Source: Chrysochromulina tobinii (Eukaryota). From it: a DNA stretch of 53,188 nt. The stretch lies in contig JWZX01003274.1 of assembly GCA_001275005.1 (NCBI GenBank), positions 1-53,188 on the forward strand, in the 5' to 3' direction. A model generated the notes under the pieces. It was not told the DNA's origin. It saw only the letters and a program-made list of their open reading frames with translations, and did no database searches. Shown here piece after piece: positions 19,715 through 29,369 of the stretch (position 1 is its first letter; each line of letters starts with the position of its first letter). A program made the translations under genes and the position numbers.

Positions 19715-20201
19715 AGCGACTCCATGGGCACGATGAAGAGGTCGGACGTCCAGATGACCGTGGAGACGCGAGCGATGGACGCGCGCGCCGCGGTTGTACA
19801 CAAGAAACTATTTGCCTTCTTCCATCCCTATTGCTCTCCTCGTATTGTGCCAATTTCCTGTTGCATATGCTCCCAAGGCCCATATGCCTGCACAATCGAA
19901 TGATGAGCCTTCTGAACGGATGAGTGACGTTGCCTGTCGTCCGTCGCCGTGCTGAATTGCGGCGAGAGGGGCGGCGTGTCATGGACAGCACAACTCGGTG
20001 TAACGGAGTCTGTGGGTGTGGTATTCTTGATACAATCGGTGTACTAAGCGTGTTTGTGTTAGTGATAGTGCGATACCGCATGCAGTGTCGTATAATAATG
20101 GTGTGTCGCAACCGAATCGCAATCGATCATGAAATCTCAAGCTCCGTGTCCAGTCCGTCCGGGGTCCTGACCTCCGGTCGGATCCTGCAGGATGGTCCGG
20201 T

Positions 20202-22298
20202 CTAATAAGCAAAAGCATCCCCATCGAAACGCATCATGCCGTCAGGCAGCGGAGGCGATGCAGCGGGGGGCACCGCCTCTGCACCCCACGTGGGTGCCTC
20301 CATCTGAGCTTTCCGCTCGGCAATAGCCGAGGGCTTGCTACTTGCTGGTGGATCGCCCTCGACCGCCACGCCCTCTGTGACATTGTGCGCGATGCCAGCG
20401 GTCGATGGCATGTCCCTGAGCACATACCCCCGCCACAAACGCCTCGCGTACTCTTCGCGCTGACCATCGAGGCGAGTCGGTGCAAAGATACCCTCGAGCC
20501 GCAGGGTCTGGGTCGCTACGTAGGTGCGATAGTATTTGAGTCGACGCTTGAGCGGCCGTGGCATACGCTCGAGCGCCCGCTCGAGGTCCTGGCTCGAAGT
20601 TTTTGAATCGTGGCCATGCATCCGCACGACTGGTATCGTCGGCAGGTGCCAAATCCGCGAGAGCGCATAGCGCACCCATTCTAGCCCCCACCAAATCGCC
20701 GATGGCACGAAAAGTGCCGGTCGCTCACCAGTGGAGCCGCCAGCCGGATCGTTCCCACCACTACCTTTGTGGCTGTCGCCGACGGCGTCGCTTGTGCTGC
20801 TCCTTCCCTCACCGAGCCGCCCGATGCCATAGCCAGGCCATCGCTTCGCACGCGAGCCGAAGTCATACACGCGTACTGTGTAGCCGAGGGCCAGAAGGAG
20901 AAGCATCTCAGCGTCGATCGACTCGAGCACTCCATAGTAGTCGCGCGCTTCGCAGTGGGAGCTTTGGATGCGGCAGAACCGGAGCGCCTCGAAAGGGATG
21001 CCGACTGCGCTCACGAGAGAGGTTAGCCCGGGGAGCGCTTCGATGCCGTTGGTCAAGTTGAGGAAATGCAAGGGCGCTGAGCGCGCCGCGCAAGCACCGG
21101 CCGCCAGCCGAAGTGACGAATCCTGTGACGAATCCCGTGACGAATCTTTGTCGTCCTCCTCCTCATCGCCAGCCAAAGTCGCCGGCGGAGCTGTGTCCAT
21201 TGACGAAGTTGACGAAGTCGCCGGCGGAGCTGCGTCCATATTTGTCGTAACCGTCGGGAGCGCGCCAGCAGCGGGAGGTGCGCGGAGATTCCCATCGCTC
21301 GCTTGGGCTGTCTCCGCTGCGATCGCCGCTGCCCTGTCTCGCCTGCCTCCCCCTTTCCTCTTGCTCCTAGTGTCATCCGATTGCCTCCCTTTGGCCTCAT
21401 TCTCCTGCTGACAATCGCCGCACACTGCCTGCATCGCCGCATCTGGCGAAGCGCCGTCTCGAGCGCCGCGACGCCTTTCCGCGTCAGCCTGTGCCATCTG
21501 CCCAAAGAGGGCTTCCAAGGCGGCCAGCCGTTCTTGCGTGGAGGCGAACTTATCGTTCGCATGGCCGACGGCGAAGGCCAGAAACTCGTCACTGACGAGG
21601 CGGGTCAGGTCGCAAGCTGCAGAGGGATCGACCCCTGTGATAGTGCCTGCGCCATCGTTGCTTGTGAGAGCTAGCGGCATCTCAAGGCCGTACGAAGTGG
21701 TTCGAATGGCAAGCATGACCTTGCCCGACTCGGAGAGCACGATCCCGCTCTCGTGGTAGTTTGCCCGCTTCGCCACCTGCAGTAGCCGCTTCGCCGCATC
21801 TGTGTCCCGGCACTGCACGTGCAAGATGGCTGGCTCTACTTTGAGCGAGACGACGCCCTTCAAGGCGGATGGCGGCGCATCCGTCGCGCTAATCGCATTT
21901 TTGGATGCGGTAGAGCCGCCATTGAGCTTTGCAGGCGAGCTGGCAATGCCACTGCCCATCGCGCCATTGCCGCTTGGCTCTGGCGTGCCACCGTGGGCGA
22001 CTGCTCCACCGCCGGATTCGGGGCTGTCAAACGAAGGAGAACCACGGAGGGCCGACTCAACTGCCGCGACATCGACGGGACCGTGACGCACGAGCAGCCA
22101 ACGGCCACCACGCGTGCCGTTGGCTGCAAAGAGCACAATGCGCCCTGAGCAGCACGACGTGGTCACAAAATCGGGATGAGCGTTCAACCCGTAGACGAGT
22201 GCAGCAATTGGCACGTCGAGCGAGCCCTTGGGTGACTTGTCCAGCTTGTGGAGCGCATTGCGCTTCGACACGTCGAAGAAGTTGGACGGCTTGGACAT
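20202..22298 (-). CDS. TYW3: tRNA wybutosine methyltransferase TYW3 domain fused to an unassigned C-terminal domain
   Basis: [12 protein letters not shown]...TTSCCSGRI...W..V.H...EPAILHVQC...ESGI...AIRT...LEMP is the TYW3 signature; ATG at 22298; second globular domain at about 21071-20420. Confidence 0.85.
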
Positions 22299-22516
22299 TT
22301 TCGCCACGAGGCGTCCTCGAAAATGTCCAAGGAGCTCGCTCACACCACGACATTTTCGCCGCGACGAGGACGCCACACACCCCCCTCCGACCTGGTTGTA
22401 GAAAATGTGTCGGCCACGCCTCCGTCCATTGCGATAGCGGCCCCCGTGCTTGGGGGTCCGGAGAGCGCGCGCGTTGTGTGTTTCACAGCAGCAGCACCGC
22501 GACGAAACTGACTGAC

Positions 22517-26729: not shown

Positions 26730-29008
26730 TCAGTCATAGATGGGGCAGAAGACGCCCATTCCCTCGCAAAAGATCCCTGGATCGTTAAAGCGTCGCCCCT
26801 GGTCTAGGCTCGCCATCGCCGCCATCTGGGCATCGCTGAGCACAAAGCCGTCCAGATCGAGATTCTCGACGAGGCGATCGGGTTTGGATGACTTGGGTAC
26901 AATCGACAGACCGCGCTGCAACGCCCACCGTAGCACCACCTGTGCTGGGCTCACACGGATCTCCGACGCCAACCCGACCACCGTCGGGTGCTGGAGTGCC
27001 GAGTCGCCGGCCGTCGCACCGCCCAGCTCGATGTACGATCCAGCGCCCAGAGGTGAGAAGCCCGTGACAGCGAGGCCGTTCTCGGCCGCATAGCGCAGGA
27101 GCTTAGGCTGTTGGAGGTACGGGTGCAGCTCCACCTGCAGCACCTCGGGAGCGATGGTTGCGTACGAGAGCAGATCCCGCAAGCCGGCCGTATTGAAATT
27201 GCAGACGCCAATATGCTTGGCTAGTCCTTTAGGGATGAGGCCCTCCATTGCCCGCCACGTCTCCGAGAGGGGCACGGGCTCGAGCTCCATCGTTGGCTTG
27301 GCGGCGCCGGGATCGAAGATCCATTCAGGTGGGTAGCGCGTCTCGAACGGCACGAACTTGAGCGAGATGGGGAAGTGGATGCTGCGAAGGTGTGAGTCGA
27401 TCGCAAGGACCATCACGGAGCAAGCCACGCGCCAGGGTGTGGCATCTGCATGCATATGAAAGCGCACGGCCCCCCTCACAGGTAAAGGTCGACGTAGTCA
27501 AGTCCAAGGTCAGCGAGTGTTTTGCGGCAGGCAGCCTCGACGTGCTCGACGGCATGGTACGTGTTCCACAGCTTAGATGTCACCCACAGCTCGTCGCGCG
27601 TCACCAGCCCCTCGGCCATAGCCCGCCTGATCCCCTCTCCCACCTGAACCTCGTTGCCGTAGTCGCAAGCCGAGTCAAGGTGACGATAGCCCGCGCGGAT
27701 CGCACATACGACAGTATCGGCGCACACGTCCTTGGGCACCTTCCATAGGCCGAGGCCGATGGCAGGCATCTTGGCACCACTTCGCAGCGTCAGGCTGCGT
27801 ATGGTTGGGGACAGCGCTCGTGTCAGCCCCGCGTGACCGCTTTCATCGGACGCGGTCCACGGCGGCAGGGCCGCTAATGGTAGGTCCTTGCCAGGCGGCG
27901 GTGCCCAGAGCGACGCGAGCACGCGACGAGGCCCCTCGTAAGATTGTCGTGAGTGGAGGGCCTTTCGGTTGTCGAGGAGTAGGACATCACCGGCCTGCCA
28001 AGGAAACGCGACGCAATGGTCGCGCAGGTACGCGCCAACGCTCTCGAGTGCCGCCCGTGCCTCCGCATCCAGCGCCGTCCCGTCACCGTACACCACCGCC
28101 TTGGCCGGGTCGTTACGGACGTCGATCCAGCCTTGCGTCGCGGCGACGACCGCGTTGAAGAACATCTCGCGGCCGGTGGCGTCGTGGTGCACGAGAGCGG
28201 GCATCCGTGGAGTCACAGTTCGCACGTCGCCGCCGTCGAGCCACGTGTACTCGATCCCCGCCGCCTCCATCGCCGCCTCCGCCTCCTCGCGACTATTCGC
28301 CATATACGATGCCCGCCAACCCTTGCCGAGGGGCGAGCTCGGGTCATTATGCTCGGGAAGCGTGCGCACATAGCGCACGCCGAGGCGGCGCAGGCGGTCA
28401 GCGACGGCCGAGTGGTGGGCTTGCAGGTGTTCCGCAACGGCGAAAGACGGGATGATCGGTGTCGCGCCGCCCGAGGCTGCCGGCCGCTCGCAGAAGAAGA
28501 ACACGTACGCCGGCGGCTCTATGCACTGTGCCATCTCGTGGTGGAAAGGGATGGGCTCCGAGGGCGGCGCCTCGTTGGCGGTGAAAACGCCCGGAGCGAC
28601 ATTCGTGCGCGGCGCCGCGCTGCATCCCATCGCAAACGGCCCGAGCTCGAGGTTCGATGCAAAGCGCGAAAAATCCATCGCTGTCGCAGAACCCCCGAAA
28701 CCTCGCAGCAGCACCGCATCGTACTTCTCGATGAGGGCCAGGAGCGCGCCACGATGAGCAGCACTCCATTCGGCGAGCGAAGCTGTCATCGCCTCGGCTG
28801 GAGCGATGGTCAACGGGAATGTTCGACCCTCAAAGCTGCGCTGCTCGGCGATGCTCACAGCTTTGCAGCCCACCGTAGCGGCTGCTCCATCGTCGTCCGC
28901 GTGCCCGGACGTAATGTGCTCGACGCGTCGAGCCCCTGCTGCAATCTCGTAAGCGTTCCGTGTGCGCGGCTTTACAGGTGCTGGCATATTTGGCGGAGGG
29001 GTCCGCAT
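26730..29008 (-). CDS. Fusion of a TauD/clavaminate-synthase-like 2OG-Fe(II) dioxygenase and an aldo-keto reductase (xylose/sugar-phosphate reductase-like); exons 29008-27480 and 27381-26730
   Basis: Dioxygenase motifs PIPFHHEMAQ and WQAGDVLLLDNRKALHSR. AKR motifs MPAIGLGLWK, DSACDYGNE, SKLWN, GVCNF, QVELHP, IVPKS. The 98-nt GT-AG intron 27382-27479 restores the canonical DLYLIHFP. Confidence 0.9.
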
Positions 29009-29369
29009 GGCTCAAAATTTCGAGCCAGGCACGAGGACGTCTGACTGATTGGTTCTGGCGACCGGGTCGGGTCCTGGATTGCGCGAGAGGTAGCGATCGC
29101 TTTTAGGACGAGTTTTTGACGAAGCGCATAAATTGACGAAACACAAGGGCGCTGCGCGAGTTCGTCAGCTCTTTTTGGTTGACACCTGAGAGAGCCTCTA
29201 ACCCTCTCGCACTGCCTTGCATGCACCACGAATATATGAAGTTTTCGTCGTTGCGCCCGTAAAGAAGAGCGACCTTCCCGAAGGCACGGCGGGCGGCTAA
29301 GGGCGGCGGTCGACCCTTCGAACGTGAACGTGGACGTTGTGGTCCGGTGTGGCGTTGGGGAGCGTGTGA

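Follow-up and report, generated by a model that had tools for sequence, protein, structure and literature searches.

The 53,188 nt contig JWZX01003274.1 of Chrysochromulina tobinii (assembly GCA_001275005.1), referred to below in its whole length as the window, carries an intronless gene that codes for the methyltransferase domain TYW3 and, in the same open reading frame (ORF), for a second domain, here called domain X. Profile comparisons make it very probable that domain X is a remote homolog of the N-terminal domain of Rit1 (PF17184; Rit1-N). According to the available text of two reviews, Rit1 acts in plants and fungi on position 64 of the initiator tRNA, to whose 2'-OH it transfers ribose-5-phosphate from phosphoribosyl pyrophosphate (PRPP), and blocks eEF1A (PMC7694415, PMC11301382). 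Domain X by itself matches none of the families in Pfam, NCBIfam, and PHROGs. The features of the gene are as follows.

20202–22298, minus strand: intronless ORF of 698 aa (TYW3, linker, domain X, short tail); the translation has no internal stop
21510–22265, minus strand: TYW3 methyltransferase domain, aa 12–263, with a low-complexity insertion (PF02676, E = 1e-42)
21408–21422, minus strand: CxxC motif in the linker right after TYW3, aa 293–296, kept in fused proteins
21069–21509, minus strand: low-complexity linker of variable length; length and sequence differ among fused homologs, and one RNA contig has a 24-nt in-frame insertion
20421–21068, minus strand: domain X, aa 411 to ~626, alpha/beta, with a Gly/Ser-rich insertion after VYDFGSR
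20205–20255, minus strand: C-terminal Pro-rich motif, seen by eye and shared with the C-termini of several X proteins from eukaryotes

Probable relationship of domain X to Rit1

The relationship was proposed from a likeness of conserved motifs, and real Rit1 sequences were then fetched for testing: six from giant-virus-type contigs (seven pattern matches; all three that were scanned are PF17184) and 120 database matches, the best out of 445. A deep profile alignment of X with Rit1 falls into the expected register with a score of 29.2 (P = 0.001), compared to 12.3 for the reversed control; the highest scores were 19.5 over 100 block shuffles and 20.0 over 54 unrelated families. In this register, N9, G13, S34, and D67 of X (96–100% conserved) coincide with N53, G57, S74, and D107 of Rit1 (all 100%). 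When 15 diverse phage and prokaryote X sequences were compared to the six giant-virus Rit1 sequences using hhalign, a probability of 85.5 and an E-value of 5.7e-6 were obtained over 87 columns (reversed control 10.9; 60 block shuffles at most 32.8 vs. 44.4 for the real alignment).

Searches in both directions separate the two families cleanly from decoys. The Rit1-N profile, run against 318 X sequences and 1044 decoy ORFs, returns X sequences at all of the top 30 positions, and the X profile, run against 120 Rit1 sequences and 1044 decoy ORFs, likewise returns Rit1 at 30 of 30. Among 760 fresh ORFs, 80 of them X, the top 20 for Rit1-N are all X. The best X member, a short prokaryote-type protein (P0216), reaches 30.0 bits against the Rit1 profile (P = 1.9e-11; reversed X sequences at most 4.1 bits), which becomes a corrected P of 1.9e-4 upon multiplication by 24,736 Pfam families and 398 sequences. 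Its top match across Pfam is PF17184 (E = 0.0068), with 16.3 bits being under the 27-bit cut-off. One and the same X profile gives 185 bits for the domain from the window and 201 bits for P0216; the link is thus transitive, the window's domain reaching Rit1 only via short members of phage and prokaryote type.

The predicted folds are indirectly in line with this relationship. Two confident AlphaFold models, one for X and one for Rit1-N, show the same order of core elements, and six weak VIA matches are common to the top 50 of both. Three of these are of protein tyrosine phosphatase (PTP) type (1ywf, 4r0s, 1fpz) and end on the same chain residues for both models. The others are two hypoxanthine-guanine phosphoribosyltransferases (HGPRTs; 2xbu, 5esw) and 8a0c, which is matched in its CriT region; CriT is described as a PRPP-dependent O-ribosyl-phosphate transferase in the available text of PMC10299916. 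Foldseek gave no match, and a search of a PDB copy turned up no structure of Rit1.

Several results weigh against homology. The window's own domain X gives no score against the Rit1 profile and has no PF17184 match, shallow X/Rit1 alignments yield P = 0.32 and 0.27, and the comparison of eukaryote-type X with cellular Rit1 yields P = 0.09. A Pfam Rit1 match is absent from 11 of the 12 best X members and from all 36 others (0/36). As for membership in Rit1 itself, residues W59, Y60, K73, H78, R88, and G258–W266 of Rit1 are without clear counterpart in X. The C-terminal domain of Rit1 (PF04179), which resembles dual-specificity phosphatases (DUSP-like), is absent from the window ORF, and X is not similar to it (P = 0.45). 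X is not a Rit1 member: it stays under the PF17184 cut-off and lacks both the C-terminal domain and the full set of invariants.

Giant-virus-type contigs (L086–L091, four of them named GVMAG; proteins of similar length, P0242–P0282) were seen to code for full Rit1 homologs in which the DUSP-like domain is decayed; E-values to PF17184 are ~1e-66 in the three that were scanned. No report of a viral Rit1 was found in search listings of the open-access literature, nor any paper on the X family or the TYW3-X fusion, and neither "haptophyte" nor "Rit1" occurs in the available text of PMC2938197 (0 occurrences). What we consider new is the likely remote homology of X to the N-terminal domain of Rit1.

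The TYW3-X gene and its transcripts

The TYW3-X fusion is real. An earlier note, made from the sequence alone, had described TYW3 in frame with a second domain, and this was confirmed by the 698 aa ORF, by database homologs (see below), and by a poly(A) contig across the junction. The start Met of the ORF is the same Met as in near-identical database proteins. The motifs which the note had quoted for the C-terminal domain were all recovered between aa 411 and 591: RIQSSHCE (443–450), VYDFGSR (477–483), PSAIWWG (532–538), and LKYYR (587–591), together with a 10-residue motif that opens domain X (aa 411–420; 21068–21039). The conserved residues kept in the window's domain X are N414, G418, R443, Q445, S446, C449, E450, D479, G538, Y589, T608, and D611.

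The TYW3 domain scores 146 bits with PF02676 (gathering cut-off 27) and has the signature residues, namely the N-terminal Asp (D28), the (S/T)xSSCxGR motif (here TTSCCSGR, 46–53), and the His (H72). The sole change in this motif falls at a Ser; for yeast TYW3, the available text of PMC5311493 gives Asp, Cys, and Arg as essential and the Ser at the changed position as dispensable. The activity expected of a TYW3 domain would be N4 methylation of yW-86 in tRNA-Phe. The CxxC motif after TYW3 is found here and in eight of nine other TYW3-bearing fused proteins, and might be a metal or redox site.

The stretch is present in 19 of 21 listed RNA runs, four of which were compared with the gene. One contig from poly(A) run X7 is colinear with 20121–21967, across the tail of TYW3, the linker, and domain X, and a second one covers 21938–22316. 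No joints were detected in the gene across the four runs. The whole ORF is not spanned by any single contig from these runs, and the contigs by themselves are not proof of one transcript. Transcripts from two separate genes had been named in the earlier note as the finding that would overturn the fusion; nothing in the RNA contigs favours such an arrangement.

A perfect 14-nt inverted repeat lies over the start codon (22290–22303 pairs with 22318–22331, within 22290–22364), and a near-copy of the start region, carrying an out-of-frame ATG, is found 55 nt upstream. A hairpin or upstream-ORF control of translation is possible. At the other end, a plus-strand poly(A) end at 20129, which probably belongs to the convergent Na/Ca exchanger gene, overlaps the 3' end of the TYW3-X RNA contig by a few bases (20121–20129). 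In the gap between the TYW3-X gene and a head-to-head short-chain dehydrogenase (22406–22497), a short element is matched, loose-ended, by many RNA contigs from elsewhere; it can be read as a dispersed repeat or a shared promoter element. Farther away (26730–29011, minus strand), the reading frame of a TauD-type dioxygenase continues into the first part of an aldo/keto reductase (AKR), the rest of which is encoded by the next ORF; the two are probably fused as TauD-AKR in a gene that has an intron.

Distribution and gene neighborhoods of domain X

Homologs of domain X were recovered in phages, bacteria, and algae. The core of X has ~165 residues, and 106 homologs of similar length were obtained among 1090 candidates, which shows that the domain is no chance product. 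Clustering at 50% identity divides the family into 967 clusters, and the best 150 of them were inspected. Standalone microbial proteins, which the note had mentioned, do exist: genes for standalone X of ~165 residues were found at 30 prokaryote loci (out of 43 stretches), mainly in Kapabacteria-type genomes and Firmicutes prophages, at 50 viral loci (out of 219 stretches), and in 162 metagenome stretches, 80 of which were retained. One GenBank phage encodes X as an annotated hypothetical protein.

Standalone X also occurs in algae, and Prymnesium parvum, the nearest named fused relative, carries X in fused as well as in standalone form. All six longer X matches (among 5235 longer candidates), P. 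parvum included, contain TYW3. A scan of 50 further long X members found TYW3 in two, squalene synthase, RNase H, and a weak BET match in one each, and nothing in 45. The squalene synthase-X (P0225) and RNase H-X (P0195) proteins are single cases that may be gene-calling artefacts. In a FastTree tree from an alignment of 293 domains (of the 318 sequences, 25 were excluded for short cover), 10 TYW3-bearing and two probably truncated sequences form one clade (support 0.994), which lies within the eukaryotic standalone forms. The fusion thus arose once and counts as one observation, not as many.

In the viral records, an RNA ligase, RtcB, or Thg1 over cut-off was found in 23 of 50 (9 of 29 lineages). 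Phage X genes are nearer to these than under random placement (9 lineages, Fisher p = 0.018); the Thy1 and dUTPase control shows no closeness to X (9 lineages, p = 0.82). This proximity to RNA repair is modest because the families were picked after having been seen near X. The 139 neighbor representatives from the 80 metagenome loci include Thg1, two types of RNA ligase, RtcB, PNKP, RlaP, NADAR, and NUDIX, in a list that is without control and overlaps the viral set in part. Most neighbors of X are DNA-metabolism genes or genes of unassigned function, those in phages being mostly DNA replication, recombination, and methylase genes (one scan: 150 of 208 candidates). In four related bacteria (L015, L016, L017, L019), X is directly preceded, in the same orientation, by a purF-like gene (glutamine amidotransferase with a weak phosphoribosyltransferase match), the product of which would be a PRPP-using enzyme.

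Possible functions and comparison with known systems

The function that we tentatively put first is that X may move ribosyl-phosphate from PRPP onto a tRNA 2'-hydroxyl. Rit1-N would be the catalytic, PRPP-binding half of Rit1, and X would retain the PRPP pocket and place ribose-5-phosphate on an RNA 2'-hydroxyl, most likely that of a tRNA. PRPP would be bound by the invariant Asp that ends strand 3 (D479 here, D107 in Rit1) and the following loop-helix, and the walls of the pocket would be formed by the N/G and S loops. The fused X might act on cytosolic tRNA beside TYW3, tRNA-Phe being the first candidate, the standalone algal proteins that have long N-terminal extensions might be directed to organelles, and phage X could protect, mark, or repair tRNA in infection. 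We count the fusion to a tRNA enzyme in favour of a tRNA role. The tRNA-modifying activity suggested in the earlier note gains independent, if partial, support from the remote Rit1 homology and the modest proximity to RNA-repair genes. X could be tied neither to wybutosine chemistry nor to position 37; an enzyme of Rit1 type would instead act on a ribose 2'-OH.

Two rival functions were kept, since X lacks several invariants of Rit1 and its best fold matches are to phosphatases. X would be a hydrolase on a Rit1/PTP-like scaffold under one of them, which we consider unlikely, and would strip phosphate, or a ribose-phosphate or ADP-ribose adduct, from RNA ends or bases in RNA repair, with Asp replacing the PTP Cys. 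However, the Cys-x5-Arg loop is absent, an invariant Asp closing the strand in X just as it does in Rit1, X has no similarity to the DUSP-like domain of Rit1, and the only domain to which its sequence is significantly related belongs to a transferase. Also quite unlikely, in our view, is a phosphoribosyl transferase or nucleotide enzyme that is related to Rit1 but uses an acceptor other than tRNA, be it phage DNA, a free nucleotide, a metabolite, or a protein; the fusion to TYW3 would then be a one-off recruitment. The predominance of DNA replication, recombination, and methylase genes near phage X, the single fusions to squalene synthase and RNase H, the purF-like gene in four bacterial loci, and the action of CriT-type relatives on sugars would fit such an enzyme, but X is close to RNA-repair genes and not to Thy1/dUTPase, a tRNA enzyme is its only recurring fusion partner, and Rit1, the closest family, acts on tRNA.

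The least likely of the rivals, which we regard as improbable, is that the likeness to Rit1 is convergent and reflects strand-loop-helix periodicity, X being an unrelated alpha/beta family fused without functional link. The Pfam score below threshold, the missing direct score for the window's domain, the lack of a Foldseek match, and the fact that Rit1 was put forward ahead of testing are in line with convergence; the corrected P of ~2e-4, the clean decoy separation in two sets, the matching invariant residues, and the retention of the fusion, both domains being intact, across diverged proteins of haptophyte type argue against it.

If the transfer of ribosyl-phosphate to tRNA is retained, a wider scenario is possible, if rather doubtful: X could be a minimal Rit1-type branch by which phages and some bacteria ribosyl-phosphorylate tRNA backbones, which algae then acquired and of which haptophytes joined one copy to TYW3, adding an undescribed backbone modification to tRNA-Phe. 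If true, phages would have a tRNA backbone mark that, for example, shields tRNAs from host nucleases or steers them between translation factors, and a prokaryotic or viral origin of Rit1 would be indicated. In the available text of PMC7694415 and PMC11301382, Ar(p)/Gr(p) is listed for no tRNA but the initiator tRNA of eukaryotes, where it is made by Rit1. A relative of ~165 aa in phages, bacteria, and algae would make the mechanism and origin of Rit1 directly testable and provide a model for an enzyme without solved structure. It would also predict tRNA backbone chemistry in phage-host conflict and give a function lead for 967 unannotated clusters.

Fusions of TYW3 to TYW2, Kelch, and a hydroxylase are on record, and earlier TYW fusions exposed the wybutosine hydroxylase (available text of PMC2938197). 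As in the plant and stramenopile TYW3-Kelch-TYW2 and the chlorophyte TYW3-TYW2-hydroxylase proteins, the window's TYW3 is complete with the essential Asp, Cys, and Arg and has an extra C-terminal module. Unlike in these, and as stated in the earlier note for Kelch and TYW2, the partner is not Kelch, TYW2, or a JmjC-type hydroxylase (no Pfam match), and the linker has a CxxC motif. With Rit1 (PF17184), X shares the colinear match of ~87 columns, Asn, Gly, Ser, and Asp in register, the core element order of the predicted models, and weak structural neighbors. It differs by its length (~165 vs. ~270 aa), the lack of PF04179, invariants of its own (R, Q, C, E, G, Y, D), and its occurrence in phages and bacteria. 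From the Cys-based PTPs and dual-specificity phosphatases (PtpB 1ywf, Siw14 6byf, TpbA 4r0s; 2–10% identity), X is set apart by the lack of a Cys-x5-Arg loop, at the position of which it has an invariant Asp at the strand end, as in Rit1. Via weak VIA matches, the type I phosphoribosyltransferases and O-ribofuranosyl transferases (HGPRTs 2xbu and 5esw; CriT of Bcs3, 8a0c) are among the closest known systems.
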